Shown here in pieces: positions 1,214 through 63,215 of a DNA stretch of 64,000 nt. The translations under genes and the position numbers were made by a program. The notes beneath the pieces are model-generated. The model saw only the letters and a program-made list of their open reading frames with translations, had not been told where the DNA came from and searched no databases. Position 1 is the stretch's first letter, and each line of letters opens with the position of its first letter. The stretch is from an uncultured Actinomycetes bacterium (GTDB lineage: Bacteria > Actinomycetota > Actinomycetes > Streptosporangiales > Streptosporangiaceae), in assembly GCA_963808295.1 (NCBI GenBank), contig CAWEFP010000022.1:111464-175463 (forward strand), written 5' to 3'.

Positions 1214-2070
1214 GTTCGCTCCCCGTCCGGCGCGCGCCGGTCACCGTCCTGGGCGCGCAGGGCGCGGCGCGCGGCGGACTCGGCCCGGCGGAAGCCGTGG
1301 AAGTGACCGGGGTGGTACAGGTGCGACCGGGTGCCCTCGGCGCTCAGGCCCGGGCCGACCAGCACCAGGGTGTGCTTCCAGAGCTTGCGCGCCTTGATGG
1401 TCGAGGCCAGGTCCGCCAGCGCGCAGCGCACGATCAGCTCGTCGGGCCAGGTCACCTGGTAGGCGATCACGCACGGGGTGGCCGGCGGATAGCCGCCGGC
1501 CAGCAGTTCGTCCTGCAGCTGCCCGGACCGCGCGGCGGACAGGAACAGCGCCATCGTGGTCCCGTGCCGGGCGAATCCGGCCACCTGCTCCCCCGGCGGC
1601 ATCGGGGTCTTCCCGCCGCCGAGCCGGGTCAGGATCACCGACTGGGCCACCTCGGGGATCGTCAGCTCCCGGCCGATCCGCGCGGCGGCCGCGGTGAAGC
1701 TGGAGACACCGGGCACGATCTCGGTGCGCAGGCCCAGCTCGGCGCACCGGTCCAGCTGCTCCTGGATCGCGCCCCACAGCGCCGGGTCACCGGAATGCAC
1801 CCGCGCCACCCGCAGCCCGCCGGCGGCGGCACGCTGGTAGTACGGGAGCACCCCCTCCATCGGCAGCTCCGCCGAGTCGACGATCTCCGCGCCGGGCCGG
1901 GCATGCTCGAGGACACCGGGATGGACCAGGCTGGACGCCCAGATCACGACGTCCGCGGCGGCGATGGCGGCGGCGCCGCGCAGGGTGATCAGGTCCGGCG
2001 CCCCGGGCCCGGCCCCGACGAACGTGACCTGCCCAGCGGTCCCCCCAGCGGTCCCCCTCCTCCCCAGCAG
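1210..2070 (-). CDS. cobM: precorrin-4 C11-methyltransferase (CobM/CbiF); start codon unresolved
   Basis: ORF 1210..1947 plus an in-frame upstream extension, [41 protein letters not shown]..., a tetrapyrrole methylase fold with the GAGPG SAM motif. There is no ATG/GTG/TTG between the upstream stop (2071) and that motif. Only CTG codons at 2070/2067 follow an AGGAGG. Confidence 0.85.
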
Positions 2071-2866
2071 TCACAGGGCACCCCGGCCGGAACGTCCCAG
2101 GCTCGCGCCCACCCCGTCGCGCCGGGCCGGGACGATCAGCGTGGACAGGTACGGCACGGCGCGCAGCGCGGCCAGCTCGGCGGCGGGCCTGATGTCCTGG
2201 CCGGGCAGCCCGAGCCGGGCCCCGGCGATCGCCCCGTCGAGCCGGCCGGCCGCGGCGAGCAGGTCGCGTACCTCCCCGGGCGACGGCCCGGCGGCCGCGC
2301 CGAGCTTGTAGCCGACGACGGTGCCGGGCCGGCCCAGCGCGTCGCGCAGCGGCCCGGCGCCGGCGGTCAGCGGCAGCAGCGTCAGCGGCTCGTCCCCCTC
2401 GGCCAGCACGGTCCCGGCCCCGGCCAGCGTGGCCGACCGCGCCGCCAGGTCCTGCATGGCCGTGATGCCGGGCACGGTCTCGATGAGCACGTCGCGGACC
2501 ATATCGCGGACCGTCTGCGCGAGATAGCTGAACGTCGAGTACAGGTTGGGGTCGCCGATCGTGCCGAACGCGACCGTGCTGGCCCCCGCCCCGAACGTGC
2601 GGGCCACCTCGCGGGCGGCCGCGTGCCAGGCGGACGCGCGGCGGGCCGTGACCCCGCCGGTGTCGTTCAGCGCGAAGGCGACCGGGCGGATGGTCTGCGG
2701 GCCGATGTGGGCGCGGATCGTCGCCTCGGCCCGGCCCGGGCCCGGGGCCGCGGCCCGCCATGACGGGGACGAAGACCGCGTCGGCCTCGCGCAGCACCCG
2801 CAGCGCCTTGACCGTGATCAGCTCCGGATCACCCGGCCCGACCCCCACCCCGACGAGCCGCTTCAT
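2071..2866 (-). CDS. cobI: precorrin-2 C20-methyltransferase (CobI/CbiL); reading frame broken by a 1-nt shift near 2735-2760
   Basis: The N-terminus [44 protein letters not shown] is in the 2866 frame. The rest ([27 protein letters not shown]...[28 protein letters not shown]...) is in the 2607 frame. The shift lies in a GGCCCCGGGCCCGGGCCGGGCC run. ATGA overlap with the cobB stop. Confidence 0.8.
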
Positions 2867-4501
2867 TCATTACCTCCCTCGCGGGCGCTTCGCGTGGTCG
2901 TGCCGGAGGCGCGCAAAACATCAAAGCGGGAGGCTGGTCCTCGGCGCCGGGACACCGCAACGGCCGCAGGCGTGCGTCGTGCCGGAGCCGCGCGGCAGGC
3001 GGCGGCGAAGCGGGCGGCGGCGCCCGGGTAACCGGCCCAGTGGGTGTGCAGGTACGACGCGTGCACGGCACCGCGGACGTGGCCTTCGCGGCGAACAGGG
3101 TGGGCGCTGAGGCTGCTGGGGCCATTGGGGCTGCGCGGGAGCTGGCGGGAGCCGCCAGGCGGCGGGGTCGCCGTGGTCCGGGGTGACGGCCGTGCGGTGG
3201 AACTCGTGCGCGCGGACCACGTCGCCGGCGGCGGCGAGCACGGAATCGGTCTCGGCGCGGGCCTGCCGGTAGCCGAGCGTCAGCCGGCCGGTCATGGCCG
3301 CGTCGGCCGGGAGGACCCCGCACATGGGCTGGCCGTCCAGGGACCGCGCCAGGTACAGCAGCCCCGCGCACTCGGCGGCGATCGGTACGCCCCGGGCGGC
3401 GGCCGCGGCCACCTCCCGGCGCAGCGGCTCGTTGGCGGACAGGTCCGCGGCGTGGACTTCCGGGAAGCCGCCGCCCAGGATGATCCCGGCCGTGCCCTCG
3501 GGCAGGCGCTCGTCGCGCACCGGGTCGAACGCCGCCACCTCCAGCCCGGCCGCGGCGAGCAGTTCGGCGTGCTCGGTGTAGCTGAAGGTGAAGGCGGCGC
3601 CGCCGGCGATCGCGACCACGGAGCCGGCGGACACCGGGAACGGCCCGGAAGCGGCGGGGACCGGGGGCGCCCCGGAACGGGAGGACACCGGGAACGGCCC
3701 GGAGCCGGCGGACACCGGGAACGGCCCGGAAGCGGCGAGGGCGCCGGCGGGGTCCCAGGGCGGGCCGGGGAGCGGGGCGGCGCCGCGGGCCAGCGCGAGC
3801 AGGCCGCGCAGGTCGCAGGACTCGCGGACCAGGGCGGCGAGCCGGTCCATGGTGTCGGCCGCGGCAGCGGAACGTTCGGCGGCGGGGACCAGGCCCAGGT
3901 GCCGGGACGGCGCGGCCACCTGGGCCGAGCGGCGGATCGCGCCGTAGACCGCGATCCCGGCCGTGGCGAGGGCGTCGCGCAGCAGCCGTTCGTGCCGGTC
4001 CGACGCGACCCGGTTGAGGATCACCCCGGCCACCGCGGTACGCGGGTCGAACCGGGCGAAGCCGGCCGCCACGGCGGCCACCGAGCGCCCCATCGCGGCG
4101 GCGTCGATGACCAGCACGACGGGCGCGCCCAGCAGCCGGGCGACGTGCGCGGTGGAGCCGAAGCCCGGATCCCCCCCTCCCCGCACCCGTCGCCCCGCAC
4201 CCGGGTCGGTGCCGTCGAACAGGCCCATCACGCCCTCCACGACGGCGACGTCCGCGTCCCGGGCGGCGTGCGTGAACAGCGGGACGATCCGGTCCTCGCC
4301 GCACAGGAACGGGTCCAGGTTCCGGGCCGGGCGCCCGGTGGCCAGCGCGTGGTAACCGGGATCGATGTAGTCCGGGCCGGTCTTGTGGCCGGACACGGTG
4401 AGCCCGGCCGCCCGCAGCGCGGCCATCAGCCCGCACGCGACCGTGGTCTTCCCGCTGCCCGAGGCCGGGGCCGCGATCACGAGCCGGGGGACGGCTACCA
4501 T
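2863..4501 (-). CDS. cobB: cobyrinate a,c-diamide synthase (CobB/CbiA); frame break near 3066-3160 and an internal tandem-repeat insertion
   Basis: ORF 2921..4501 reads [51 protein letters not shown]...GVMGLFDG. The conserved C-terminal [20 protein letters not shown] is in a different frame (ORF 2863..3066). Confidence 0.85.
3620..3740. repeat. about 27-bp tandem repeat inside cobB (GPFPVSAGS-type peptide units)
   Basis: The unit gccggcggacaccgggaacggcccgga recurs about 3 times. The protein reads [38 protein letters not shown]. Confidence 0.8.
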
Positions 4502-5870: not shown

Positions 5871-5881
5871 CCCGGGGACGG

Positions 5882-7246
5882 TCAGCAGCCGGGCCCGGAA
5901 CGGCGGCGGCGCCGGAACGGGGTCCGGTCCTGCGGGCGGCGGGCCCCCGGCACAGGCCCGTTCGGCATCGTGATCTGCGGCCCGCTGGGCCGCGGCGGGT
6001 TCCGGCGCGGGACCCGGGCCCGCAGGGCCCTGGCCGGCGGGGCCCTGGCCGCGGCGTGCGCGGCCGGGCCGGGCGCACGGCCGGAGGGCGGCGGCCCGCC
6101 GGGCTGCGGCGGGTCCGGCTGGTCGGGGGGCTCAGGCGAGTCCGGGCCGGACGGGTCAGGGGGGGCCGGCGGGCCCGGCGGCGGCTGGCTGAGCGCGTCC
6201 TCGAGCTCCTGCTCGTCCAGGCCCGGGGCGTCGAACGGGTCGCGGCGGCGGCGGTGCGGCAGCGCCAGCCGGGCCGCCTGGCGGATGTCGTCCACGGTCA
6301 CCTCGCCGCGGCCGTGCCAGGCCGCCAGCGCGATCGCCGCGCGCGCGGTGACCAGGTCGGCGCGCATGCCGTCGACCCCGAACCGGCCGCACACCGCGCA
6401 GATCTGCCGCAGCGCGGCGTCGGGCAGCACGACGTGCGGCAGCCGGGCGCGCGCGGCGGCCACGGCGGCGGCGATCCGGCGGGAATCGGCGGCGAAACGG
6501 GCCGCGAAACCGGCCGGGTCCGCCTCGAAGGCGAGCCGGCGGCGGACGACCTCGGCGCGCTCGTCCGGATCGCGGCTGGCCGCCACCTCCACGGTCAGAC
6601 CGAACCGGTCGAGCAGCTGCGGCCTCAGCTCGCCTTCCTCCGGGTTCATCGTGCCGACGAGCAGGAAACGCGCGGCGTGCCGGACCGAGACCCCCTCGCG
6701 CTCGACGTAGCTGACCCCGAGCGCCGCCGCGTCGAGCAGCAGGTCGACGAGATGGTCGTGCAGCAGGTTCACCTCGTCCACGTACAGCAGGCCGCGGTGC
6801 GCCGCGGCGAGCACGCCCGGCTCGTAGGCGGTGACGCCCTCGGACAGCGCGCGCTCGATGTCCAGCGAGCCGACCAGGCGGTCCTCGGTGGCGCCCACGG
6901 GCAGCTCCGCGAGCGTGGCCCGCCGGGCCTGCTCCGGCGCGCCGGGCGGGTGCGGGCCGTCCGGGCAGGCCGGGTCGGGCGCGGCCGGATCACAGGAGAA
7001 CCGGCAGCCCCGAACGACACGCACCGGGGGCAGCAGCTCGCCGAGGCCGCGGACGACGGTCGACTTCGCGGTGCCCTTCTCGCCGCGCACCAGCACCCCG
7101 CCGATCGCGGCCGAGACCGCGTTGAGCAGCAGCGCGAGCTTCAGATCCGGCATGCCGACGATCGCGGCGAAGGGATACAGCGGCGCATGGGTGCCGCCGC
7201 GCACCGCGTGCCGCTCGTCGCCGGACGTTACGCCGCTGGCTGTCAT
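5882..7246 (-). CDS. ChlI-like AAA+ ATPase of cobalt chelatase with a Pro-rich linker tail
   Basis: [40 protein letters not shown]...[26 protein letters not shown]...[24 protein letters not shown], followed by a [33 protein letters not shown] linker. Confidence 0.8.
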
Positions 7247-7261: not shown

Positions 7262-7470
7262 CCGGGTCTTCGCGCCCGTAGCCGGTCATACCGGCGGCCG
7301 GAGTCTCCTGGCTCCCGGATCGGTGCTCGCCCTCGCCTTCCCGCCGCGGTGGCGGCGGTGGCCTCGATGAGGGGTTACTCCCCGGTTACAGTTGCGCGAC
7401 AGCCCCGGATTCGCACCGGAGTTCCTCTGCATACCGCCTCGGCCCAGCATGACACATTTACCGAGGTGCC
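7262..7470 (-). promoter_or_regulatory. cobalamin (B12) riboswitch leader of the chlI-cobO-cobB-cobI-cobM-cbiD operon
   Basis: The minus-strand RNA contains AGGAACUCCGGUGCGAAUCCGGGGCUGUCGCGCAACUGUAA (the GGUG..AA..CC / CGCAACUGU core). A B12-box-like GGGAGCCAGGAGACUCCGGCC follows, just upstream of the ATG at 7246. Confidence 0.7.
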
Positions 7471-11595: not shown

Positions 11596-11679
11596 TCCTG
11601 ACGCTTCCTGCGCGGGCGTTAGAGGTGGCGACCGGGCGCCGGGCGGCGATGCCGTCCGGCGCCCGGTCTGCTTTTGCGC

Positions 11680-11745
11680 GGGCGTCTCTTTGCCGGGGCG
11701 GCTCGTCGCGGGGGCGTCTCTTTGCCGGGGCGGCTCGTCGCGGGG
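11680..11745. repeat. 32-bp direct tandem duplication, intergenic
   Basis: gggcgtctctttgccggggcggctcgtcgcgg occurs twice between the sqdB stop and the TetR stop. Confidence 0.75.
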
Positions 11746-11753
11746 CGGGTGTC

Positions 11754-12569
11754 TCAGGCGGCGAGGCCGATCAGCTGGCCCAGGTCGGCGACGGCACGGT
11801 CGAAATACGCGGCGGTATCGGTGACGACGTTGTTGAACTGGCCGAACAGCTCGAAGCTGATGACCCCGAATACTCCGGCCCAGGCCGTCAGCGCCCCGAC
11901 CGCGGTCTCGTCGCTGACCCCCGGCAGGACGCTGTCCCGGAGCCGCCGGCGTCCTCGGACAGCGCGTTCGGCATCGGCGGGTTGCCGCGGCGCCGGGCAC
12001 GAGTTCGCGCGTTCGCCGGGCACGAGTTCGCTGTGCTCGCGTTCGCTGTGCTCGCGTTCGCCGTGCTCGCGTTCGCCGGGCAGGAGTTCGCCGGGCTCGC
12101 GTTCCCCGGGCGCGAGTTCGCCGGCCGCGTGGGCGTCGCTGATCAGCCGGCCGAAGACGGCGGCGGACCGGGCCGCGGGGCCGATAGTGTCCGGCGGCGC
12201 CTGGTACCCGGGCACGGGCGAACCGTAGATCAGCGCGTACTCGTGCGGGTGCGCGAGCGCCCAGGCCCGGGCGGCCCGGCACGCCGCCCGCCACCGGCCC
12301 GGGTAGTCGTCCCGCCGGCACTTTGCGTCGGCGTCCTCGACGGCCTGGCCGATGGCGTTGTAGCCGTCGATGATCAGCGCGGTCAGCAGCTCGTCACGGC
12401 TGGCGAAATACCGGTAGATCGCGGAGGAGACCATGCCCATGTCCCGGGCCACGGCCCGAAGCGACAGGGCGGCGGCACCATCCGCCGCGAGCTGGGTGCG
12501 GGCGATATCCGTGATCTCGCGGGTAATCTCCGCGCGGACCCGTTCCCGCGCCGTCCTGCGTGCCGGCAC
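11754..12569 (-). CDS. TetR/AcrR family regulator with an internal 15-bp repeat insertion
   Basis: The N-terminal HTH reads ITDIARTQLAADGAAALSLRAVARDMGMVSSAIYRYFASRDELLTALI. The C-terminal domain is interrupted by GEREPGELLPGEREHGEREHSEREHSELVPGE. Confidence 0.8.
   Translation of the reverse strand: MPARRTARERVRAEITREITDIARTQLAADGAAALSLRAVARDMGMVSSAIYRYFASRDELLTALIIDGYNAIGQAVEDADAKCRRDDYPGRWRAACRAARAWALAHPHEYALIYGSPVPGYQAPPDTIGPAARSAAVFGRLISDAHAAGELAPGEREPGELLPGEREHGEREHSEREHSELVPGERANSCPAPRQPADAERAVRGRRRLRDSVLPGVSDETAVGALTAWAGVFGVISFELFGQFNNVVTDTAAYFDRAVADLGQLIGLAA
11995..12125. repeat. 15-bp tandem repeat (about 8 units) inside the TetR gene
   Basis: ctgtgctcgcgttcg / ccgtgctcgcgttcg / ccgggcaggagttcg units in a strict 15-nt register. 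Confidence 0.85.
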
Positions 12570-14119
12570 CCTCCGACCTTAGCAGAGCGCCAGGCACAAA
12601 CAAGAGCAGCGCTCTTTCCGGTGTTCATCCCGGCGGAGGGCACCCGGCGCGGCTGCCGGGAGCCGTCATCCAGTACGTCCTGCGGTTCACCTCGGCGAAG
12701 GACGGAGCGTCGCCCCGCACCGGGACGCACCCGCCGAAACGTCCGCCCAGAAGCCGAAGTGACACAAGCGGCGCACGGGGCCAGCTGACACTCCCCGCGG
12801 CGGCAAGCCCCGGCCTCGGCCAGTTCCGGGCAGATTTTTTGGCACATACTGCCGAAAAGTCTGCCCATAGTGGGGCGAACCTGGGTGGGGGCGCGCTCGG
12901 TCACGGGGAGCGGGGGGCGACGGCGGGGGCGGCGGGGCCGGTGGCGGGGGCGGGGCGGCGGGCGCTCGGACCAGATTGGGACCGCGAAGATCGCCGCGAT
13001 GGGGAACAGGGCCCCGATGCCGAACGCCCCGGCGTAGCCCGACAGTCCGATGAGCTGCGCCATCACCGGGGGCGTCGCGGCCGCGGCCACGTTCTGCCCG
13101 GTGTTCTGCACCCCGAGCGCGCGGCCCGCCCACGACATGCCCGCGATCTCCGCCACCGCCGTGAACGCGAGGCCGTTCGTGCTGACCGACAGGGCGATCG
13201 CGGCGAGCAGCGCGCCGACGGCCAGCGGCGAACGCCACCACATCCCGAGCGCGGTCAGCCCCATGACGGCCGCCACCACGCAGGCCAGCCAGCGCATCGG
13301 CCGGAGCCTGCTCATCGCGCGGTCAGACCACCGGCCGGCCACGAGCCGGGTGAGCGCGCCCGCCAGGTTAGCGATCGCGATGACCCGGCCCGCGCCCTCC
13401 GCGCCCCAGCCGCGCCCGGCCACCAGGTACACCAGCGCGAAGCCGGTGGTCGCGAACTGCGGCACCACGAGCAGCATGCTGGCCGCGTGAATGCGCCACA
13501 GCGTGGGCGTCCGGTACGGATTCGGCGCGGGGGCGGCGCCTGCGCGGGCGGCGCGGGGCGGGTCGGCCGCGAAGACCGCGACGGCGGCCGCGGCCACCAG
13601 GCACAAAGCTCCGCACGCCCCCAGCGCTCCGGCCAGCGCCCAGCGGGCCGCGATGAACGGCAGGGAGGCCGCGGCGATCATGGTCCCGAGCGGCTGCGCC
13701 GTCTGCCGTGCCCCCATCGCCAGGCCTCGTTCGGCCGCTGAGAACCAGCCGAGGACCAGCCGGCCGCTGGCCGCGTTGACCGAGGCGCCGCCGGCTCCGG
13801 CGCAGCCGAGCAGGATGCCGATGCTCAGGGCGCCGGACAGCCGCGTCGCCGCGATGAGGCTGGCGCCGGCGATCGCGAGCCCGGCGGTGATGACCAGCCG
13901 CTCACCGTACCGGTCGGCGGCGGCCCCCCACGCGACCAGCGCGATGATGACGCCGACCAGCGGCGCGGCCGCGAGCGTGCTCGCGCCGGTCAGCGACAGC
14001 CCGAGCTGGTGACGCAGGTCCGGCACGATGTACGGGAGGCCGTACAGGAACACGCAACTGGCCGCCTGCGCGCCCATGCCGAGGGCCAGCATCCACCACC
14101 TGCGGCGATCCGCTGCCAT
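12383..14119 (-). CDS. MFS transporter; the last ~180 codons are probably run-on and overlap the TetR gene
   Basis: About 395 aa of 12-TM MFS-like sequence (WWMLALGMGAQAASCVFLYGLPYIVPDL...AADRYGERLV...). An Arg/Pro-rich non-membrane tail then extends into 12383-12569. Confidence 0.7.
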   Translation of the reverse strand: MAADRRRWWMLALGMGAQAASCVFLYGLPYIVPDLRHQLGLSLTGASTLAAAPLVGVIIALVAWGAAADRYGERLVITAGLAIAGASLIAATRLSGALSIGILLGCAGAGGASVNAASGRLVLGWFSAAERGLAMGARQTAQPLGTMIAAASLPFIAARWALAGALGACGALCLVAAAAVAVFAADPPRAARAGAAPAPNPYRTPTLWRIHAASMLLVVPQFATTGFALVYLVAGRGWGAEGAGRVIAIANLAGALTRLVAGRWSDRAMSRLRPMRWLACVVAAVMGLTALGMWWRSPLAVGALLAAIALSVSTNGLAFTAVAEIAGMSWAGRALGVQNTGQNVAAAATPPVMAQLIGLSGYAGAFGIGALFPIAAIFAVPIWSERPPPRPRHRPRRPRRRPPLPVTERAPTQVRPTMGRLFGSMCQKICPELAEAGACRRGECQLAPCAACVTSASGRTFRRVRPGAGRRSVLRRGEPQDVLDDGSRQPRRVPSAGMNTGKSAALVCAWRSAKVGGCRHAGRRGNGSARRLPARSRISPAPSSRRMVPPPCRFGPWPGTWAWSPPRSTGISPAVTSC

Positions 14120-14230: not shown

Positions 14231-14415
14231 GGGCCCGCGCGGTGGCGGAGGGCCCCGTGGCGGAGGGCCCCGTGGCGGAGGGCCCCGTGGCGGAGGGCCC
14301 CATGGCGGAGGGCCCCATGGCGGAGGGCCCCGCGGCGCGAGGGCCCCCGTGGGCCCCGGCGGGAGGGCCCCATGGCGGAGGGCCCCGTGGCGGAGGGCCC
14401 CGTGGCGGAGGGCCT
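14231..14415. repeat. 15-bp tandem array (about 12 units) between the glyA stop and the MFS start
   Basis: The ggcggagggccccgt unit has point variants (cat/cgc). At least four of the six reading frames carry a long track ORF across it (14028.., 14170.., 14189.. and 14141..14542). Confidence 0.9.
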
Positions 14416-37588: not shown

Positions 37589-41245
<3,657 letters not shown>

Positions 41246-44055: not shown

Positions 44056-44084
44056 TCCACCGTGTCTTCCTCCGCTGTGCCGTC

Positions 44085-44180
44085 CGGGCCGCCATTGGGC
44101 CGTCCACTGGGCCTTCCACTGTGCCTTCCATTGGGCCTTCCGTCGTCTCCACTGTGCCTTCCGTCGCCGTGTTCCGGGCG
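44085..44180. repeat. 12-bp tandem array in the pyrB-pyrC spacer
   Basis: ccattgggccgt ccactgggcctt ccactgtgcctt ccattgggcctt ... ccactgtgcctt. In the pyrC frame it reads KAQWRRKAQWKAQWKAQWTAQW. Confidence 0.9.
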
Positions 44181-44230
44181 GTCGCCTTCCGTCGTCGCGC
44201 TCGCGGCGGCCGTCCCGGGCGCCTGGCCGG

Positions 44231-45241
44231 TCACCGGGGTTCCCCGGGCAGTTCCGCGCCGCCGAGGAGCAGGTACAGCACGGCCATCCGGACGCTGACA
44301 CCGTTCGCGACCTGCTCCACGATCGTCGACCGGGGCGAGTCCGCCACCTCGGCCGCGATCTCGACCCCCCGGTTCATCGGCCCCGGATGCATCACGATGG
44401 CGTGCTCGGGCAGCACCGCCATCCGCCCGGCGTCCAGCCCGTACCGGCGGCTGTACTCACGGACGCTGGGGAAGTACGCGGCGGTCATCCGCTCCTGCTG
44501 TACCCGCAACATCATGATCACATCGCTCTTGGGCAGCACCGCATCCAGGTCGTAGCTGACCTCGCACGGCCAGCCGTCCACGGCGATGGGCAACAGCGTA
44601 GGCGGCGCGACCAGGGTCACCTCGGCGCCGAGGATGTTCAGCAGCGTGATGTTCGACCGGGCCACGCGGCTGTGCAGGACGTCCCCGACGATCGTCACCC
44701 GCACGCCGTCCAGCCCGCCCGTACCGGACCGGCCGCTGCCGGGTACCCGGCGGCCGGCCCCGCCCGGGCCGCTTCCCCCGGCCCCGGGCCGCAGGCCGAG
44801 CCGGCGCCGGATGGTGAAGGCGTCGAGCAGCGCCTGGGTGGGGTGCTCGTGCATGCCGTCACCGGCGTTGACCACGTGGCCGCGAATCCAGCCGGCCAGC
44901 CGCTGCGGCGCGCCGGACGCGACGTGCCGGATGACCACGGCATCGGCGCCCATGGCCTCCAGCGTCAGCGCCGTGTCCTTGAGGCTCTCCCCCTTGGCGA
45001 CGCTGGACCCCTTGACCGAGAAGTTGATCACGTCCGCGGACAGCCGCTTGGCGGCGGCCTCGAACGAGATCCTGGTCCGGGTCGAATCCTCGAAGAACAG
45101 GTTGACGACGGTGCGCCCGCGCAGCGTCGGCAGCTTCTTGATCGGCCGGTCGGACACGCGCGCCAGCTCTTCGGCGGTGTCCAGGATCAGGAGTGCATCG
45201 TCCCGGCTGAGGTCGGCGACCGAGAGCAGGTGCCGGTTCAT
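44231..45241 (-). CDS. pyrB: aspartate carbamoyltransferase catalytic subunit, with a Gly-rich ~25-30 aa insertion
   Basis: [26 protein letters not shown]...[21 protein letters not shown]...[16 protein letters not shown]...[11 protein letters not shown]. The insert [28 protein letters not shown] lies just before [15 protein letters not shown] overlap with the pyrR stop. Confidence 0.9.
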
Positions 45242-47462: not shown

Positions 47463-48157
47463 CGCGTCCTCTCTTCCGTGCGGAACCGTGCCAGGCGAGG
47501 CACTTCCCGCTACCACGCCTGGCACGGGGTCCGGCCGCCCGAGGGGGGTCAGGCGGCCGGGGCCTTCACACATCCAGTCGAACACAGTTTCGGCTGTGTG
47601 TCCAGTCCGTTTGTACCTGCGTTCGAATGTAGCTGGGGGGTCCGACATTCCGGCCGGCCCCGCGGGCGCGGGGCGCGGGCGCGAGGCGGAGCCGGCCGGC
47701 GGGGTCAGCGGAACGGCCACGATGGCGCGGTCGTGGCCGCCATGACGTCGACGATGACGCCACCGTGGACGTGGCGAGATCCCAGGGGCGGGGATTTTCC
47801 GGGACGTTCGTCCATGGCCGAACGCGGACATGTCATGACATGGTTACGCGGTGTTTCCGGGAGTCGCCGTTCTGCCGGTTACGCCTGGTCCGGGGGATGT
47901 GCGCCCGTTCGCCGAAGATCCACGGGGAGGGCTACCACCGCGCACAGGTCGCAACTAAATGACCCGTTGCGTCGTCATTTATAGCGAAACCTCACCGGCG
48001 GTTCCCAGGGAACCCCCAGCAGGGCCACTGCCGGGACCCAGCGGGCGGCGGCCGGGGAACCGCACCGGAGGCACGGGCCGGCCGGTGAACGTTGGGCCTG
48101 AGATTGCGCGGCGGCAGCACGCGCCGAACGATCGCGACGTTGGAGGACTTATCCGGC

Positions 48158-50716: not shown

Positions 50717-50808
50717 CCGCCCGGGGACACGCACCCCCTCTCTCGCACGATCGTGACACTCCGAAGTAAATTAATTACTCAGAGTTGCAAACGGTGCGGG
50801 AGGTGACG

Positions 50809-53289
50809 ATGAGCCACGCCCGGCGGGAATCCGGCCTTCCCCTTCCCGCGGCGGAAGCCTCTCCGTCGCGGCGGGCGGTGCTGCGCGGCGGGGCGTTCGG
50901 CGGCGTGGCGCTGCTCTCGCTGGCCGCGGCGCCTAAGGCGCACGCCGCGCCGCGGCCGGAGCAGGCCGCGGCGTGGCCGCGGCAGGCCGTGCGCACGGCC
51001 GCGAGCGGGACGGCCGCCACCCCCGCACGCCAGTACGACTTCGGCCAAGGCTGGCTCTTCGGCGGGGCCTACCTGGCCGGCGCCGAGCAGCCCGGCTACC
51101 CCGACGACGGGTTCACCCGGGTGACGCTGCCGCATACGGTGACCCCGCTGTCGTGGGCCAACTGGGACCCCACGAGCTGGGAAAACGTGTGGATCTACCG
51201 CAAGCACTTCGCGGGGTCCGACGTCCGCGGCGGCCGGGTGTTCGCCGACTTCAACGGCGTCATGGTCAACGCGGCCGTGGTCATCAACGGGGTGACCGTC
51301 GCCACTCATGAGGGCGGCTACCTGCCGTTTTCGGCCGAGCTGACCGGCCACCTGGCCGACGGCGACAACGTGCTCGCGGTCATCGTCGACGCGCGCTGGC
51401 TGGACGTGCCGCCGGACAACCCGCCGAGCGGAACCGCGTCGGTGGACTACCTCCAGCCGGGCGGCATCTACCGGGATGTCACGCTGCGGGTCGTGCCCGA
51501 GGTCTGCATCCGCGACGTGTGGGCCAGGCCCGTCAACGTGCTCACCGCGGACCCGGCGCTCGAGGTTCAGGTCACGCTGGACGCCGCGAGCGTGCCGGAC
51601 GGCACGCTTCAGGTCGCCGTCCAGCTCCTGGACGGAGCCCGCGAGGTCGCCGCGGCCGGGATGGCCGCGGCGGTGGTAGCCATCGGCGCGACCGTGCTGC
51701 AGCTGACCCTGACCGGGCTGGCCGGCGTGGTGCTCTGGTCACCGGACGCGCCGAAGCTGTACACCGTGCGGACGACGGTCTCGCCCGTTACCGCGCCGCC
51801 GCACACCGTCGACGTCACCACCGGGTTCCGGCAGGCGGCGTTCCAGCCGGACGGCTTCTACCTCAACGGGAAGCGGCTGGAGATCTTCGGGCTGAACCGG
51901 CACCAGCTCTTCCCCTACCTCGGCATGGCGGCGGGCGCGCGGCTGCAGCGGCGGGACGCCGAGATCCTCAAGAACGAGCTGAACTGCAACATGGTGCGCT
52001 GCTCGCACTACCCGCAGTCGCCGCACTTCCTCGACGCCTGCGACGAGCTGGGCCTGATGGTGTGGGAGGAACCGCCCGGCTGGGCGTACACCGGCGACGC
52101 CGCCTTCGGGCAGATCGTGCTGCAGAACGTGCACGACATGGTGGTCCGCGACCGGAACCGCCCGTCGGTCATCGTCTGGGCCACCCGGCTCAACGAGACC
52201 GCCAGCGCCGTGGACCTGTACGCGCAGACCCGGCAGCTGGCGTACGACCTCGACGGGACCCGGCAGACCACGGGCGCGATGTCCAGCTACTCGCTGACCG
52301 GCTGGGCCGAGGACGTCTTCGGCTACGACGACTACCACGCGGTGGACGGCAACGCGACGCTGGAGCCGCCGCTGCCGGCCGTTCCGTGGCTGGTCAGCGA
52401 GGCGGTCGGCGCGCTGGACGGGTCGCCGCTCTACCGCTGGACCGATGCCGGGGCGGTGCTCGCCGAGCAGGGTCAGATGCACGCCCAGGTGCACAACATC
52501 GCCCAGTCCGATCCCCGGTACGCGGGCGTGCTGGGGTGGTGCGCCTTCGATTACGCCTCCCTGAACGGGGGGAGGAGGATCTGGGACAACCTGAAGACGC
52601 CGGGCGTGCTCGACACGTTCCGGGTGCCGAAGCCCGGCGCGGCGTTCTACCGCTCGCAGGTGTCCCCGGCGGACCAGCCGGTGATCCTGCCCATGTTCTT
52701 CTGGGATTTCGGTCCCGGGTCCCCGATCGCCGGGCCCGGCCAGGGCTCGATCATCGCCACCAACTGCGACCGGCTCGACATCTTCCTGGACGGGCAGCAC
52801 ATCGCCAGCACCACCCCGGACGTCACCGATTACGGGAACCTGGCTCACCCGCTGGCCTTCGCCGACCTGACGGTGGACGGGGCCAGCCGGCCCGAGCTGC
52901 GGATCGACGGTTACGTGGCCGGCGCCCTGGCGGCGTCGGTGCGCATGTCCGCGGACACCACCCGCGACCGGCTGTCCCTGGTGGCGGACGACACCTCGAT
53001 CCGGGCCGATGGGTCCGACACCACCCGGCTGACGTTCCGCGCGCTGGACGCCTACGGCAACCAGCGGCCCTATGTGGACGGCGCGGTGTCCCTCAGCCTG
53101 GTCGGCCCCGCCATTCTGGTGGGCGATAACCCATTTCCGTTCGGTATATACGGCGGCGTCGGCGGCGCGTTCGTGCGTTCGGTGCCCGGCCGGGCCGGGC
53201 TGGTCACGATCACGGCGGAGCACCCGGGGCTCGGGTCCGCCGCCACGCGGCTCACCGTGACACCCGCGCCCGGCCGCGCGTTCCTCTGA
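50809..53289 (+). CDS. secreted glycoside hydrolase family 2 (TAT signal), tandem paralog
   Basis: GGGAGG RBS then ATG. SRRAVLRGGAFGGVALLSLAAAPKAHA signal. FGLNRHQLFPYLGMAAGARLQRRDAEILKNELNCNMVRCSHYPQSPHFLDACDELGLMVWEE. Collinear with copy 1. Confidence 0.85.
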   Translation: MSHARRESGLPLPAAEASPSRRAVLRGGAFGGVALLSLAAAPKAHAAPRPEQAAAWPRQAVRTAASGTAATPARQYDFGQGWLFGGAYLAGAEQPGYPDDGFTRVTLPHTVTPLSWANWDPTSWENVWIYRKHFAGSDVRGGRVFADFNGVMVNAAVVINGVTVATHEGGYLPFSAELTGHLADGDNVLAVIVDARWLDVPPDNPPSGTASVDYLQPGGIYRDVTLRVVPEVCIRDVWARPVNVLTADPALEVQVTLDAASVPDGTLQVAVQLLDGAREVAAAGMAAAVVAIGATVLQLTLTGLAGVVLWSPDAPKLYTVRTTVSPVTAPPHTVDVTTGFRQAAFQPDGFYLNGKRLEIFGLNRHQLFPYLGMAAGARLQRRDAEILKNELNCNMVRCSHYPQSPHFLDACDELGLMVWEEPPGWAYTGDAAFGQIVLQNVHDMVVRDRNRPSVIVWATRLNETASAVDLYAQTRQLAYDLDGTRQTTGAMSSYSLTGWAEDVFGYDDYHAVDGNATLEPPLPAVPWLVSEAVGALDGSPLYRWTDAGAVLAEQGQMHAQVHNIAQSDPRYAGVLGWCAFDYASLNGGRRIWDNLKTPGVLDTFRVPKPGAAFYRSQVSPADQPVILPMFFWDFGPGSPIAGPGQGSIIATNCDRLDIFLDGQHIASTTPDVTDYGNLAHPLAFADLTVDGASRPELRIDGYVAGALAASVRMSADTTRDRLSLVADDTSIRADGSDTTRLTFRALDAYGNQRPYVDGAVSLSLVGPAILVGDNPFPFGIYGGVGGAFVRSVPGRAGLVTITAEHPGLGSAATRLTVTPAPGRAFL

Positions 53290-53292
53290 GCT

Positions 53293-53367
53293 GAGGGTTC
53301 CAGGGGTCGTCCCCCTCGGCCAGCAATCGGGGGTTCCAGGGGTCGTCCCCCTGAGCCAGCACTGGGG
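53293..53367. repeat. 37-bp hairpin-containing repeat x2 directly after the GH2 stop
   Basis: GGGTTCCAGGGGTCGTCCCCCTCGGCCAGCAATCGG / GGGTTCCAGGGGTCGTCCCCCTGAGCCAGCACTGGGG. The motif is the same as in the carB insertion. Confidence 0.9.
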
Positions 53368-53448
53368 CGCGAGGGATTCCTGGCCACCTCCGGTGGGTAC
53401 GGGGGAAACTTGACCGCCAAGCGCAGCGCCGCACGAGGAGGTAGCCCG

Positions 53449-54508
53449 ATGGGATGTGAGGTTTCGTGGTTCGCCGCACTGTGCGATGACGATTACGAGT
53501 TCCTTGGTGTGCCGGACCCGGCTCTGCAGTCCAGCTGGGAGCACTGCCGCACGATCGCGCTCGCCGCCGAGGCCGGCGGCTACGACAACCTGCTGCTGCC
53601 GTCGGGATACGCGATGGGCATCGACGCGGTGGGCTTCGCGGCCGGCATCGCCCCGCTGCTGCGGCGCATGCAGCTCCTGGTGGCCGTGCGGATGGGCGAG
53701 ATGTGGGCGCCGCAGCTGGCCCGGCAGCTGGCCACACTGGAGCAGATGCTCGGCGGCCGGCTGCACGGTCAACATCATCTCCTCCGACCTGCCGGGCCAG
53801 AAGCTGGAGTCCGTGCCCCGGTACCAGCGCACGCTGGAGATCATGGGCGTGCTGCGCGACCTGCTCGACGGCAAGCCGGTGGATTTCCGCGGGGAGTTCG
53901 TCGACGTGACGCTCGATCCGCCGCGGCTGCGGCCGAGGGGCGGGTGCCCGCCGTTCTACTTCGGCGGCCTGTCCGAGTCCGCGCGCGAGGTGGCCGCGCA
54001 GGCCGCGGACGTGTTCCTGATGTGGCCGGACACCCTGCCCGGGGTGGCGGCGGTGATCGAGGACATGCGGGCGCGGGCGGCGCGGTACGGGCGGGAACTG
54101 CGGTTCGGGTACCGGGCGCACGTGATCGTCCGCTCCACCGAGGCCGAGGCGCGGGCGGCGGCGCGGCGGCTGCTGTCCCGGCTGGACGCGGAGACCGGCG
54201 AGCAGATCCGCCGCCGGTCGCTCGACACCACCTCGGCCGGGAACGCGCGGCAGCGGGAACTGCGGGAGGTGGCCAACAGCGAGGGGTACGCCGAGCCCCA
54301 GCTGTGGACCGGCATCGGCCGGGCGCGTTCGGGCGCGGGGGCCGCCATCGTGGGCGACCCGGACCAGGTGCTGGCCAAGCTGCGGGCGTACCAGGCGCTG
54401 GGCATGGAGGCGTTCATCCTGTCCGGTTACCCGCACGCGGCCGAGGGCGACCTGTTCGCCCGCCATGTGCTGCCTCATCTGGACCACGGGCCCCTCTTCC
54501 CTCGCTGA
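53449..54508 (+). CDS. ssuD: FMNH2-dependent alkanesulfonate monooxygenase (LLM class); 1-nt frame break near 53761-53766
   Basis: GAGGAGG RBS. MGCEVSWFAALCDDDYEFLG... then, in the second frame, TVNIISSDLPG...PPFYFGGLSESAREVAA...LRFGYRAHVIVRSTEAEARAAARRLLSRLD...LWTGIGRARSGAGAAIVGDPDQVLAKLRAYQALGMEAFILSGYPH. It is collinear with my recollection of E. coli SsuD. Confidence 0.85.
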
Positions 54509-55134
54509 ACCTCCCCCAGATGGGCGTTGCGCGCTGAGGAACGCGTCCGGTGGGGTGGCCTCGGGTCAGACGGGCTGAAGCGGAGGCGGACTTGCCCTGG
54601 CGGGTGGTGCTGGGGCAGCCACCGTACGTGGCCCCTGTGGCCATTGCGACTTTTGCGATACGAGGGGCGGCTGGCCCGGCCGTCCATCGGGATTCGGGGC
54701 GACTAGTCCGCGCATGCTGCGGAAAAGCCGCCCCGAATCCGGCCGGGAGGGTCTGGGGGGCGCGGGGGCGGTGAATGCGGGGGCGCGGGGGCCGGGGGCG
54801 ATGCGGACGCCGGTGACCTCCGCGCCGATGTTGCCCGCGATGCGCCGGATGTCGATGGCCGGGGCACTGGTGGACATGGGTCTCCCTTCCGCAGGGTCGC
54901 GCGGCCCGTCCGGCGGGGCACGCATGGCCGTCTCCCTGAGCAAAACACTAGGGCAGAACAATTGTCAATAATTTAGATAGGTTTTGACGACTAAATACAG
55001 CGGCCCCGGGCAGGGGCACCGCGGCCGGCGGGGGCGCCGCCCGGGCGCGGGAGGCGGCATCCGCCGGGGCCGCTGGTCGGCGCGGGCGGCGGCGTCCATG
55101 GGCACCGGGGGCGGCGTCCCGTAAGCTCAGCAGG

Positions 55135-60162: not shown

Positions 60163-61304
60163 CGGCGCCCGGCCAGGGCGGCGAGGGCGGCCAGGGCGGC
60201 GGCGGTGACCGTGACGGCGCGGGACAGGCGCGCCACGCGGCGGATGTCGCGGGGCTCGGGCGGGCGGCCGTCGCCGAGTTCGGGCCGGTACTGCGGGACG
60301 CCGTGGTAGGCGCTGGCCCCGCCGAGCCGCAGGCCGAGCGCGCCGGCGAAGGCCGCCTCCGGCCGGCCCGCGTTCGGGCTGGGATGCTGCCCGCCGTCGC
60401 GGACGGCGGCGCGCAGCGACCCGCAGGGGCTTCCGCCGACGGCCGGCGCGCAGGCCGCGGCGAGCACCGCCGTCAGGCGCGCGGGGGCCCAGTTGGCCAC
60501 GTCGTCGAGGCGCGCCGCGGCCCAGCCGAACCGCTCGTAGCGCGGTGACCGGTAGCCCACCATCGCGTCCAGCGTATTCACCGCGCGGTAGGCGGCCAGG
60601 CCAGGCAGACCGGCCAGCGCGCCCCAGACCAGCGGGGCGACCGCCGCGTCGCTGGTGTTCTCGGCCACGGATTCCACCACGGCGCGCGCGAGGTCCTTCG
60701 CGCCGAGCTGGTCCGGGTCGCGGCTGCAGAGCCCCGGAAGCATCGCGCGGGCCGCCGCCAGATCGTTGGTATCCAGCGCGTCTGCGGTCCGTTCGGCTTC
60801 ATGGCGAAGCGAACGGGCACCGGTGACCGCCCAGACGGTGGCCGCGACGGCGGCGGCGCGCGGCAGCGGCCGGCCGCGGGTGAGGCGGTGCGCGGCCACG
60901 GCGGGCAGCGCGGCGGCCAGCACGCAGGCGCCGGCGTGCACCGAGCCGCGGCGCCGGCTGTCCGCGTACATGCGCGATTCCAGCCGCGCGGCGGCGCGGC
61001 CGAAGGCGGCCACGGGGTGCCCGCGGCGCGGGTCGCCGAGCAGCGCGTCCAGCGCCACACCCGCGGCCAGGCCGCCCGCCAGCGCCCAGTCCCGGCGCGG
61101 GCCCCGGCCCAGGCGCGGGCCGTGGCCCAGGCGCGGGCCGTGGCCCAGGCGCGGGCCGTGGCCCAGGCGCGGGCCGTGGCCCGGCGCGGGCCGTGGCCCC
61201 GGGAGGGCCAGCCAGCTGGTCCCGCCGAGGGCCAGGAGGCTCGTCCTCGGGAGGGCCAGCCGGCTCGCCGCGTCACCCGGCACCGCCCGGCGCCTGCCCC
61301 TCAC
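60159..61304 (-). CDS. cbiB: adenosylcobinamide-phosphate synthase (CbiB/CobD) with a repeat-encoded N-terminal extension
   Basis: The core reads [22 protein letters not shown]...[49 protein letters not shown]. It is preceded by [28 protein letters not shown]. No canonical start lies between the repeats and the core. Confidence 0.8.
61093..61270. repeat. 18-bp tandem repeat x4-5 plus flanking gggagggccagcc repeats at the cbiB 5' end
   Basis: gcccaggcgcgggccgtg occurs x4 with one 17-nt variant. gggagggccagccagctgg / gggagggccagccggctcg follow. Confidence 0.9.
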
Positions 61305-61405
61305 ACATCACAGCATCCGACCTTAGGCGAAACCACCGTGGTGTGGCCCGGCTCCCGCGGGTAACCGGGTGCGGGTTCGCGCGGCTGCCGGGGCTGGCTC
61401 GGCGC

Positions 61406-62281
61406 TCACCACGGCCGGCGGTCCGGCCGGCGCAGGCGCGCCTCGATCTCCGGCCGGTGGCGCTCCAGCCACACCGCCGAGCGCAGCAGCCGCTCCCCCA
61501 CCCCGGCGTCGAGCATGCCGATCCAGGCCCCGCCCTGCATGCGGGCCCGCTGGGCAATGGTGTCCCGCGAACGGCGCAGCCACCGGCTGGCCACCGAGAC
61601 GAGACGGGCCCGTTCGGCGTAGGGAAGGCCGTACGCCTCGCAGAAGACCGCGATCCGGGCCGGGGCGTCGGCGTTCTTCAGCGCCGGATCGCGGTCGGCG
61701 GGCGCGGCGATCGGGGCCCAGTGGCGCAGCGTCTGGACGATGTCGACCAGCCGTGTCCCGGGCCGTGCCAGATCGAAGTCGATGAGAGCGTACGGCCGGG
61801 GGCCGTCCGGCCCGGGGCGGAAGATGACGTTCTCCAGGTTCACGTCGCAGTGGCAGACGATGCCCGGCGGGCCGTCGACGAGCCGGGTCAGCTCGCCGTC
61901 CCACCGCGCCCAGGCGGGTGGCTCGAAGCCGGCGACCGCCTCGTGATAACGCAGAAGCAGTTCGGCCAGGGAGACCAGGGTCGAGTCGGCGGTGACGAAC
62001 GCCGCGCGCGGGCGCCGGGCCACCACGCCGGGCAGGTAGGTCAGGACCTCCCGATTCCTCGCATCGACCCCGAGCACACGCGGGGCTCCCTCGAAGCCGG
62101 CGGCTTCGAGGTGCCGCAGTAATGCGTGCACCGCGGCGGTGTGCGGCCGGACCGGGCGCCGGACGGTTCCGCCGACGCGGACGACGCCTCTGGTCATGTC
62201 ACCGCCGAGGAGGGGAATTTCGGCGGCCTCGGGGTCGGCGCTGACGTAGGGGCACGGCAGCACGGCGCTCTCCGCGGCCAA
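61406..62281 (-). CDS. aminoglycoside/choline-kinase-like phosphotransferase (APH family)
   Basis: GIVCHCDVNLENVIFRPG (HxDxxxxN catalytic loop) and ALIDFDLARPG (DFD). Confidence 0.75.
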   Translation of the reverse strand: MAAESAVLPCPYVSADPEAAEIPLLGGDMTRGVVRVGGTVRRPVRPHTAAVHALLRHLEAAGFEGAPRVLGVDARNREVLTYLPGVVARRPRAAFVTADSTLVSLAELLLRYHEAVAGFEPPAWARWDGELTRLVDGPPGIVCHCDVNLENVIFRPGPDGPRPYALIDFDLARPGTRLVDIVQTLRHWAPIAAPADRDPALKNADAPARIAVFCEAYGLPYAERARLVSVASRWLRRSRDTIAQRARMQGGAWIGMLDAGVGERLLRSAVWLERHRPEIEARLRRPDRRPW

Positions 62282-62485
62282 GGGGCTCTCCGCGGCGAAG
62301 GGGCTCTCCGCGGCGAAGGGAGCGCCGGTAACGCCGCCGTCGTGGCCGCACTCCCCGGCGTTCCGCTCCCCGAGCGCCCCGGCGTTCCGCGCCCTCAGCG
62401 CCTCGGCGTTCCGCGCCCTCAGCGGCCCCGGCGTTCCGCGCCCTCAGCGGCCCGGCGTTCCGCGCCCCGAGCGGCCCGGCGCGTT
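62265..62485. repeat. two adjacent tandem arrays (18-bp x3; ~21-22-bp x5-6) at the APH gene 5' end
   Basis: ggggctctccgcggcgaa occurs x3, then ccggcgttccgcgccctcagcg-type units. The block ends in the hairpin TTCCGC-agc-GCGGAA. Confidence 0.85.
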
Positions 62486-63124
62486 TCCGCAGCGCGGAAC
62501 GGGCCTTGAGCGTTTGGCTGCGGTCCAGCAGTTCGCCGGAATGCTCGCGCAGCACGCCGGCGAAGGCCCGGATAAGGTCGAGGCGGTCGGACACCGACCG
62601 GATCTGACGCCAGGCTGTACCGGTGTCATCGGCGTCATCGGCCAGCCCGTCGGGGGGGCTGGCTGCTCCGTCATGCTCCGCCAACGCGTCATCCGGCGCA
62701 TCGGCCCCGGCCTGACGGCTGGTAAGTAAATCCCTAATAGGTGGTTTTTCCACGAACATCATGAAAAGTGACGATAAGCGGTTACTGCCCGAAATTGCTA
62801 GATGTCACTGAGGTAATGGTGAACCCTTTGGCTTTCAATTTGTGTAACTGCAGGCAACACCGACCGCAGGGATCACATTGGCATCTTCAGCTGCCGGGGA
62901 TGCCACTTGCCTCATGTGACCGTTATGGCACCGGGGCACCGGATAGGGACATTCGGCGCACGGGGACGCCCAGCCCAGAATGGTCGGTCGATGCTTGTTC
63001 CGGTCCATTGCGCCTGGGGCTGGGCGACGCGGGCCGAAGCCACGTTCGGCCGGGTTGGGCGAGGTTGGGCGAGGCGCGGGAGCGTGAGATGCTGGAATGC
63101 GCCGGGGGATGCTGAATGGCGTTC

Positions 63125-63215
63125 GGGTCGTGTCCGGTCAGGGCGTCCAGGGCGTGTCCGGGCCGGGCGTCCAGGGAGTGTCCGGCCAAGGATGCGGGGC
63201 GTGTCCGGCCAGGGG
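63125..63215. repeat. degenerate GTCCAGGG.GTGTCCGG-type repeats upstream of the tRNA
   Basis: ggtcgtgtccggtcagggc gtccagggcgtgtccgggccgggc gtccagggagtgtccggccaagg ggggcgtgtccggccagggg. The units resemble the third unit of the carB insertion (TCCAGGGGAGTCGTCCCCCGG). Confidence 0.6.

Follow-up and report, generated by a model that had tools for sequence, protein, structure and literature searches.

A 64,000-nt window of contig CAWEFP010000022.1 (assembly GCA_963808295.1), from an uncultured Actinomycetes bacterium of the Streptosporangiaceae, has a GC content of 72% and carries blocks of GC-rich repeats within and between many of its genes. We consider it likely that these blocks represent three superimposed things, i.e., tandem arrays that change length by slippage, a dispersed palindromic element, and errors in the consensus sequence. 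Most of the blocks are copy-number-variable repeats located in tolerant linkers, loops and spacers, similar to variable-number tandem repeats (VNTRs), with slippage as the probable mechanism by which they change. The palindromic component is a short hairpin element, apparently an undescribed family, which related soil bacteria carry in frame in many of their core genes and which is represented in the window by an insert in carB and a pair of units at 53.3 kb. Finally, sequence comparisons indicate that the 1–2-nt indels which break carB, carA, cobN and cobB in the window are probably consensus errors in G/C-rich repeats.

The relatives nearest to the CarB fragments of the window were uncultured Streptosporangiaceae metagenome-assembled genomes (MAGs), many of them long-read "MFD" MAGs, together with short-read SMAG/SPRUCE MAGs and Actinomadura. 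Specifically, we relied on the following related loci (prefix L; proteins, prefix P): L001 (88–92% DNA identity over window ~27.6–49 kb), L081/L083 (ENA contig_82991; 93–97% identity and syntenic with window ~0–37.5 kb), the short-read Joint Genome Institute (JGI) contig L082 (97.3% identity over window 2.6–7.1 kb; same or sister species), and the short-read contig L204, which spans the TetR gene and whose flanks are ~99% identical to the window. The clade-wide comparison set comprised 80 related loci, and the repeat-period test covered 1.7 Mb of the clade.

Tandem Repeats Finder (TRF) reported 24 arrays in the window at a score of ≥60 and 11 at ≥100, compared with averages of 0.55–1.4 and 0, respectively, in 40 shuffles. 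The tandem repeats are thus real and non-random, and arrays lie at almost all of the positions listed in the initial annotation of this DNA, which left out the largest one in the window (14242–14414). That annotation regarded the repeat density as unusual and essential enzymes as the special targets. We found that the density of the window (3.75 arrays per 10 kb) falls within the range of related loci measured in the same way (median, 2.33; maximum, 5.54). Since several of the densest related loci are short-read MAGs, the high density is a trait of the clade and not of the window or of long-read sequencing. As for the targets, by Pfam and orthologue mapping about half of the arrays lie elsewhere than in conserved coding sequence, namely after glyA, in the pyrB–pyrC spacer, upstream of cbiB, of APH and of a DUF397-like open reading frame (ORF), and in a twin-arginine translocation (Tat) signal peptide. 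The remaining arrays occupy linkers or loops of CobB, CobN (two sites), CoaBC, PyrB, CarA and TetR, and the CarB block lies in the oligomerisation-domain region.

Repeat periods were divisible by three (3n) in 47 of the 56 arrays in confident same-frame coding sequence (CDS; 84%) and in 91 of the 143 non-coding arrays (64%; Fisher p = 0.006), which is the modest bias expected from frame maintenance. The sharper split proposed for the window, with 3n periods inside genes and other periods outside, is not seen, because its intergenic arrays also have 3n periods (15, 18/27, 12/21/24, 24, and 24).

Comparison with close relatives revealed that the arrays differ in copy number at shared loci, where the window has 4–12 units and relatives that are 93–99% identical have 0–2. 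Specifically, the window is longer by 137 nt after glyA (about 2 copies in L081), 83 nt in linker 1 of CobN (vs L081), 85 nt in TetR (vs L204), 69 nt in the "DUF397" array (vs L081), 9 nt in coaBC (vs L081) and 16 nt in the intergenic repeat at 11711 (vs L081/L083), while the cobB array in L083 has about 2 units and is 54 nt shorter. Fewer units at the same loci in relatives indicate slippage, and the VNTR-like slippage offered as one explanation by the initial annotation is consistent with most blocks. Block-vs-block BLAST within the window found no shared sequence except that the carB insert matched the 53.3-kb pair, and folding in excess of shuffles was limited to three blocks, with none in most arrays. 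As the blocks have no common sequence and most lack excess structure, they represent sequence amplified locally rather than copies of a single element. The features are listed in Table 1.

Table 1. Repeat blocks and hairpin elements of the window, with the evidence for each
Position	Strand	Feature	Evidence
3619–3737	−	CobB array, 27 bp x4.4, GPFPVSAGS-type; linker just before GATase domain	TRF, translation
6007–6181	−	Chelatase (fused ChlI/ChlD-type) linker, low-complexity 15/9-bp repeats	TRF, Pfam
11676–11748		32/16-bp repeat between epimerase and TetR genes, intergenic	TRF
12008–12130	−	Loop of TetR_C_33 domain, 15 bp x7.8 (GEREH/GEREP); TRF span 12008–12124	TRF, Pfam, translation
14242–14414		Largest array of the window, 15 bp x12, score 246, non-coding; begins right after glyA (SHMT) stop	TRF
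22500–22665		"DUF397" array, hairpin-rich, 18/27/35 bp, between Methyltransf_19 and HTH_31 genes; TRF span 22500–22665	TRF
25002–25333	−	CobN inter-domain linker 2, Pro/Ala-rich; holds 27 bp x2.2 array (25215–25276)	Pfam match breaks at profile positions 668/677; TRF
27117–27210	−	CobN linker 1, 15 bp x5.5, 97%; GESRP as read, PANPA in the frame of the flank; TRF span 27128–27210	TRF
31535–31600	−	CoaBC loop, 9 bp x3.1 (31547–31574), in frame, gene intact	TRF
39459–39785	−	Composite palindromic element in carB oligomerisation-domain region	Sequence, profile match E = 9e-9
41640–41790	−	CarA variable loop between HNHGFAA and VSHVNLNDG, 17/20-nt repeat (41681–41757)	TRF, tblastn frames
44060–44230		pyrB–pyrC spacer array, 12/21/24/28-nt periods (44086–44209), upstream of conserved PyrC start	TRF
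44696–44809	−	Gly-rich loop between the PyrB domains, about 29 aa; gene intact and insert in frame; not a TRF array	Alignment
48195–48282	+	n-region of Tat signal peptide of secreted GH2 enzyme, 21 bp x3.7 (HTGEGRA; TRF 48195–48271)	TRF, Pfam; SRRTLLAGG downstream of array
53289–53365	+	Two tandem 40-nt hairpin units, beginning at the stop codon of GH2 paralogue	Profile matches E = 9e-9 and 4e-8
61094–61267	−	Arrays upstream of conserved CbiB start: 18 bp x5.9 (61094–61199; GHGPRL as read) and 24 bp x2.7	TRF
62267–62490	−	Upstream/N-terminus of APH-family kinase: 18 bp x3 and 24/49 bp x5 arrays; the second spans a stop in that frame	TRF, translation, Pfam
63118–63214		24 bp x4.1 array, stretch without coding periodicity	TRF, GC3 frame plot

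Further analysis of the individual loci revealed that the sites, but not the sequences, are common to the orthologues. The cobB array has the same sequence, copy number and length in the independent short-read contig L082 (protein P0121), and the CobB linkers of P0123, P0172 and P0166 carry unrelated repeats at the equivalent position. CobN orthologues (1187–1349 aa) have unrelated, length-variable Pro/Ala-rich linkers at both sites, several of them with tandem repeats of their own (including the short-read JGI proteins P0005, P0016 and P0021); linker 2 in particular holds long repeats of its own in P0007, P0011, P0008 and P0006. TetR homologues are mostly 233 aa in length, and P0250 and P0262 bear different repeats in the same loop. 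In both L082 and L083, one uninterrupted ORF encodes the chelatase, which includes an AAPxQ linker domain. The CoaBC loop measures 22 aa in the window, 19 in L081, 18 in L001 and 2–3 in L003 and Actinomadura, and the PyrB loop measures 37 aa in L001 and 3–14 aa in other relatives (12–116 nt over 59 loci). Both of these expansions are common to L001 and L081 and absent from more distant relatives. The PyrB block, described earlier as a Gly-rich insert, is a Gly-rich loop and lies between the two domains of solved ATCases, with no TRF array in it. The orthologue alignments thus show lineage-specific sequences at positions which the orthologues have in common. Every intragenic block occupies a linker or loop whose length differs among members of the whole family, and the contrast drawn by the initial annotation with ordinary low-complexity linkers is not supported.

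The CarA loop is 51–270 nt long across the clade, nearly always 3n in relatives, and its expansion is absent from L006 and L042. In the window the loop measures 187 nt, which shifts the frame, and its 17/20-nt units change the reading frame, in conflict with the in-frame block reported there. The CarB segment spans 285–603 nt in related loci, in which the lengths of the PyrB, CarA and CarB segments are almost always 3n. In the spacer between pyrB and pyrC the window has about 120 nt more than L001, and the spacers of relatives are roughly 10–60 nt long. Three of the proposed hosts are misassigned or are no housekeeping genes. The only DUF397 match, a weak one, lies downstream of the "DUF397" array (fold z = −3.4), and the orthologous stretch is uncalled/intergenic in L081; the CobD_Cbib domain begins at ORF residue 79, past the arrays of the cbiB block (fold z = −3.8); and the GH2 array lies in the n-region of a Tat signal peptide.

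Some neighbouring features of these arrays were also recorded. Two tandem GH2 paralogues occupy window 48092–53289, with 73–84% identical DNA segments at ~2.58-kb spacing; each encodes a Tat signal peptide and has a separate 21-bp array close to the N-terminus, that of the second paralogue lying just after the signal peptide. The pair formed by TetR and a transporter of the major facilitator superfamily (MFS; window 11754–14119) is missing in L081/L083, where only short remnants align (12850–13069), and is thus a two-gene insertion or deletion between close relatives. A cobalamin riboswitch (85 bits; 7301–7427, minus strand) lies upstream of the cob-cluster gene that encodes the fused ChlI/ChlD-type chelatase, and a tRNA gene (Rfam, 74 bits; 63323–63396, plus strand) adjoins the 63118–63214 array in a stretch that looks non-coding (62.5–63.7 kb).

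In comparison with the arrays, the carB block is of a different kind. It was first taken for a tandem array and is instead a 327-nt stretch (net +318 nt, i.e., 3n) that has an identical frame on both flanks and consists of two ~88-nt hairpin modules, then a GGGGCGCGGAGCGC hairpin, and then three ~40-nt hairpin units. The stretch folds at z = −4.6, and its insertion site aligns to E. coli CarB ~477–483. One in-frame TGA (39717–39719) occurs at a spot where other copies run 1 nt shorter. No relative was found to have the insert at the same locus. However, ~160 nt of it match the short-read contigs L117, L177, L134, L084 and L155 (89–95% identity over 87–162 nt), and the entire insert is collinear with a ~250-nt composite element of other contigs, which indicates that it is no assembly artefact and belongs to a dispersed family. 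An intein or intron was considered and rejected on sequence grounds, the insert being 106 codons of low complexity and collinear with a dispersed, mostly intergenic repeat.

The unit of this family has a 40-nt core, cGGGGGGTTCCGGGGGGTCGTCCCCCCGGGCCAGCAc, which is abundant in soil metagenomes. Among the matches listed, 107 copies gave the core consensus cGGGGGG-TTCC-GGGGGG-TCGT-CCCCCC-GGGCCAGCAc, outside of which conservation drops to background. The core is free of stop codons in all six frames and forms a hairpin with an 8-bp G/C stem (CCGGGGGG/CCCCCCGG) and a 4-nt loop; in some copies, e.g., L149, L182, L184 and window 53334, A-T replaces G-C at the base of the stem. In JGI metagenomes, the core with the GCCAGCA tail was present on at least 120 short-read soil contigs. 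A profile of the unit matched nothing in the window at E < 1 beyond the carB insert and the 53.3-kb pair. The same profile matches many relatives, in several loci just downstream of carB and in others inside genes. A hairpin unit stands just past the carB stop in L024, L026, L040, L041, L072 and L075 (~11.45–11.65 kb), and this recurrent copy suggests a preferred landing site or a terminator-like role. Tandem arrays of the 40-nt unit, with periods of 39–48 nt, occur at L187:5240–5360, L086:1517–1586, L117:155–230 and L155:1969–2029; that of L187 has five units translated in frame inside a prolyl oligopeptidase.

Most copies of the element are intergenic overall. Of 126 copies among the matches listed, 36 have coding sequence on both flanks, and both flanks have the same frame in 20 of these 36, compared with 12 expected (1/3; p = 0.005). 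A continuous coding-like ORF runs through the copy in 16 of 18 candidates (two of them in the L187 array), L181 and L137 having been dropped as chance matches. In L003, the unit is read in frame and adds ~16 residues to an intact CarB, and in the short-read MAG L054 two units make up the PyrB loop of an intact gene, with a similar PyrB in L035, L037 and L040. L019 has a similar unit, but the length of its loop is non-3n and a stop is present. At least 13 other conserved host proteins were found on short-read contigs. By Pfam, the hosts include GltB, Tricorn protease, POR, a TsaD-family protein, NudC, CobB, PheS, SNF2 helicase, acyl-CoA ligase, CCA/poly(A) polymerase, NadE, Ada/AlkA, prolyl oligopeptidase, an ABC transporter and an FHA-PrsW protein. 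In these hosts the element usually lies between domains, and Pfam domains flank the copy on both sides in GltB, Tricorn, PheS, NadE, CobB, CCA/polyA polymerase, SNF2, Ada/AlkA, prolyl oligopeptidase and the ABC transporter. The loop element is ~90% identical (41/45 nt) between different genes of different genomes. Dispersal of the element and its in-frame residence in intact genes elsewhere are thus observed directly, and they point to an element that would be mobile, would be moved by an enzyme, and would be translated within its hosts. Literature searches, run both on its sequence and on the topic, did not turn up a description of the hairpin element, only guanidine-II hairpin papers that share its complementary core.

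Other palindromes were noted in the CarA loop of relatives. A second one, ACGTTTCCGCGGAAACG, which frequently forms a pair around GCAATTGC, is found in frame within the CarA loop of many relatives (peptide DVSAET), at ~7.7–7.9 kb in L008, L012, L015, L016, L021, L022, L032, L037 and L040, and also occurs at unrelated sites (L008:18723, L021:19447, L026:19252, L030:20264 and L032:20792). It could be another dispersed element or the binding site of a regulator. CGTTGTGACAACG-type palindromes were found in the CarA loop of relatives as well; the window contains neither type.

The 53.3-kb pair has a second possible identity. On the minus strand, 53302–53354 scores 35.1 bits against the guanidine-II riboswitch (mini-ykkC, Rfam RF01068; gathering score, 32), with two tandem GGGGACGACCCC hairpins 19 nt apart, and the pair could on this ground be a working riboswitch, with the whole family being riboswitch hairpins. 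However, the match is antisense to both neighbours, the GH2 gene (which ends at 53289) and a luciferase-like (LLM-type) oxidoreductase gene (which starts at ~53410), and no minus-strand gene lies downstream of it at the locus. Moreover, the fourth loop base is T in only 70–79% of the 107 copies among the matches listed, such that many would read GCGA and the family does not keep ACGR in the loop; coding regions contain copies in either orientation; and an Rfam search of six relatives with intragenic copies gave no relevant match. Riboswitch identity was rejected on orientation and context, the match is likely a false positive, and we find it extremely improbable that the pair is a working riboswitch and the family one of riboswitch hairpins.

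Next to the repeats themselves, the accuracy of the window determines how they can be read. Over the 4.4 kb shared with the short-read contig L082, the window has +1 nt at 2751, +1 at 3135 and +2 at 6054, and all four L082 genes are intact; the insertion at 3135 removes the conserved C-terminus of CobB (HASYLHTHW), and that at 6054 splits the chelatase gene. The lesions of carB are a 1-nt deletion at ~40731, a 1-nt insertion at ~39041 that makes a TGA, and the TGA of the insert. Linker 2 of CobN is spread over three frames in the window and has a near-identical peptide in one frame in P0001. Compared with L001, the CarB fragments show 94–98% protein identity at about 91% DNA identity, which indicates that constraint persisted. 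Relative to L081 there are 53 single-base indels, enriched 2–3x in homopolymer runs, and the related MFD MAGs are Nanopore-only assemblies with one Medaka round (PMC12313526). The most economical reading of the window's indels is residual consensus error, and the "in frame" status of a repeat there is therefore not reliable in detail. The LLM-type oxidoreductase gene (53410–54537) is split over two frames near 53760, a probable further indel error.

The mechanism that we propose on these grounds would have three parts. Arrays of 9–27-bp units, each specific to its locus, would gain and lose units through slippage during replication or through unequal recombination at sites where length is barely constrained (linkers, surface loops, the n-region of a signal peptide, non-coding spacers and the 5′ ends of genes); selection would weed out non-3n lengths within genes, and the same sites are hypervariable across the soil Streptosporangiaceae clade, with each lineage having its own unit. 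The carB insert and the 53.3-kb pair are copies of a repetitive extragenic palindromic (REP)-like element that sometimes forms arrays or a ~250-nt composite, and a copy that inserts into a tolerant loop and adds a multiple of 3 nt overall would be retained as a Gly/Pro/Ser/Arg-rich insertion, in the manner of Rickettsia palindromic elements (RPEs). Consensus indels of 1–2 nt, enriched in G/C runs and repeats, would give carB, carA, cobN, cobB, the chelatase gene and others the appearance of frameshifted genes.

Could the blocks have simpler origins? They would be ordinary, ancient low-complexity linkers, with no active process behind them, if the variation of orthologues in a linker or loop at the site of every intragenic block were all there is to explain, and Pfam does model one such linker (AAPxQ). 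This is unlikely, since the linkers of different lineages have unrelated and often internally repetitive sequences, genomes that are 93–99% identical differ in copy number, and some loops hold a dispersed element ~90% identical between different genes and genomes; preservation of one linker sequence at each site across genera was looked for among the orthologues and is not the case. Genome decay would instead make carB, carA, cobN, cobB and the chelatase gene true pseudogenes, in which repeats and insertion reflect relaxed selection. The state of carB (−1, +1 and a stop-bearing insert), the three frames of cobN and the missing conserved C-terminus of cobB agree with decay, yet on either side of the lesions protein identity (94–98%) is higher than DNA identity (about 91%), the majority of the neighbouring genes are undamaged, and the same genes are intact in the 97.3%-identical short-read contig. 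Loss of pyrimidine/arginine and cobalamin synthesis would also be unexpected in a large-genome soil actinomycete. Taken together, these points make decay distinctly improbable.

Long-read basecalling or assembly might also have produced the blocks, with noisy reads or mis-polished repeats inflating or creating the arrays and the carB insert. Many of the 1–2-nt indels are absent from the short-read contig, the window arrays exceed those of L081, L083 and L204, the related MAGs received the single polishing round mentioned above, and each non-3n expansion (83 and 85 nt) comes with a single-base indel. Against this, a short-read JGI contig has the identical cobB array, shorter forms of the same arrays occupy the same loci in relatives, short-read assemblies have equally repetitive linkers and an equal or higher repeat density, and the carB insert matches short-read contigs at 89–95% over up to 162 nt; we consider artefact as the origin of the blocks very unlikely. 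The last possibility is that one selfish palindromic family lies behind every block, extending to all of them the in-frame palindromes resembling RPEs that the initial annotation had raised. Relatives do have hairpin units in their PyrB, CarA and CarB loops, folding exceeds that of shuffles in three window blocks, and short TTCC-GGGG-nnn-CCCC motifs are present in the "DUF397" and cobB arrays. However, only the carB insert and the 53.3-kb pair are linked by block-vs-block BLAST, the unit profile matches nothing else in the window at E < 1, and most arrays lack excess folding, such that a derivation of all blocks from decayed hairpin units was rejected and is largely refuted. A single family is accordingly a highly improbable source of every block; the comparison with in-frame palindromes stands for the carB insert and for the intact CarB, PyrB and other genes elsewhere, not for the other blocks of the window.

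Several observations weigh against the proposal that slippage, a dispersed element and consensus errors are superimposed. At the two 15-bp arrays inside genes, indels compensate for one another: the cobN linker 1 array has +83 nt and a further +1 nt at ~27255, 40 nt upstream (net +84 nt vs L081), and the TetR array has +85 nt and −1 nt at ~11953, 47 nt downstream (net +84 nt vs L204), which leaves 13–15 conserved flanking codons read out of frame. This paired +84-nt outcome is predicted neatly by neither slippage nor random error. The array lengths and indels of the window are those of a consensus sequence, and the window arrays are nearly always longer than those of relatives, to which consensus problems in repeats could contribute. 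In carB, the in-frame TGA together with two further frameshifts may mean that the element killed the gene here and was not tolerated. In addition, the hairpin element is putatively mobile on the ground of its dispersal.

In-frame palindromic elements are known in Rickettsia as RPEs (PMC10969869), and intragenic REPs that encode 20–82 residues have been described in several Proteobacteria (Di Nocera et al. 2013, PMC3733652); neither source mentions Actinobacteria. Like RPEs, the hairpin element is a dispersed palindrome found in frame in unrelated conserved genes, where it contributes a peptide at a tolerated site and keeps the ORF. It differs in having a 40-nt core of almost pure G/C (vs roughly 100–150 bp in AT-rich genomes), in occurring in free-living soil Actinobacteria at mostly intergenic sites, and in being read in several frames and both orientations with no single conserved peptide. 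The likeness is one of description, and from base composition sequence homology to RPE-1 to RPE-10 is very unlikely. With intragenic REPs (GTAG/CGTC-tagged), the element shares 20–40-bp hairpins that are mostly intergenic, often near gene ends, and that occur as singles, dimers and clusters with an intragenic minority, a good match in both size and behaviour; it also forms a ~250-nt composite, unlike those REPs, and no terminal GTAG or CGTC tag is visible in its consensus.

The arrays have counterparts of their own. Mycobacterial VNTRs and mycobacterial interspersed repetitive units (MIRUs) are head-to-tail arrays in or near genes, whose copy number varies between close relatives through slipped-strand mispairing. 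As in mycobacterial VNTRs, the copy number of the window arrays differs between close relatives. Their 9–27-bp units are specific to each locus, unlike MIRUs, which are one dispersed family with units of 40–100 bp, and no such shared family joins the window arrays. The blocks also resemble the Pro/Ala/Gly inter-domain linkers of many proteins (e.g., PF26791, AAPxQ, in ChlD-type chelatases) in position, composition and variable length, but in this clade turnover is very fast, the repeats are often perfect at the DNA level, and some linkers contain the dispersed element.

Most of the finding is ordinary, i.e., the repeat-rich linkers, loops and spacers of a high-GC genome seen through an error-prone consensus, and reading frames or peptides taken from such windows cannot be relied on. 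For annotators, a G/C hairpin pair of this family can exceed the guanidine-II threshold in the wrong orientation. Beyond this, we put forward, tentatively and with somewhat less than even confidence, that an ORF-compatible palindromic family of soil Actinobacteria (40-nt core, ~250-nt composites) spreads and repeatedly colonises permissive loops (CarB, PyrB, CarA, GltB, PheS, NadE and CobB), and that, together with slippage of its units, it seeds a large part of the loop variation that is specific to lineages of this clade. As the unit is short, has sharp boundaries and occurs abundantly in public soil metagenomes, direct tests are possible of its mobility, of its insertion preference and of the effect that it has on host proteins. 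The hairpin element would extend the phenomenon of RPEs and intragenic REPs to free-living Actinobacteria and would supply a DNA-level source for some of the lineage-specific insertions in conserved enzymes; if the proposal is true, the ORF-compatible family would be the equivalent of Rickettsia RPEs in GC-rich, free-living bacteria.

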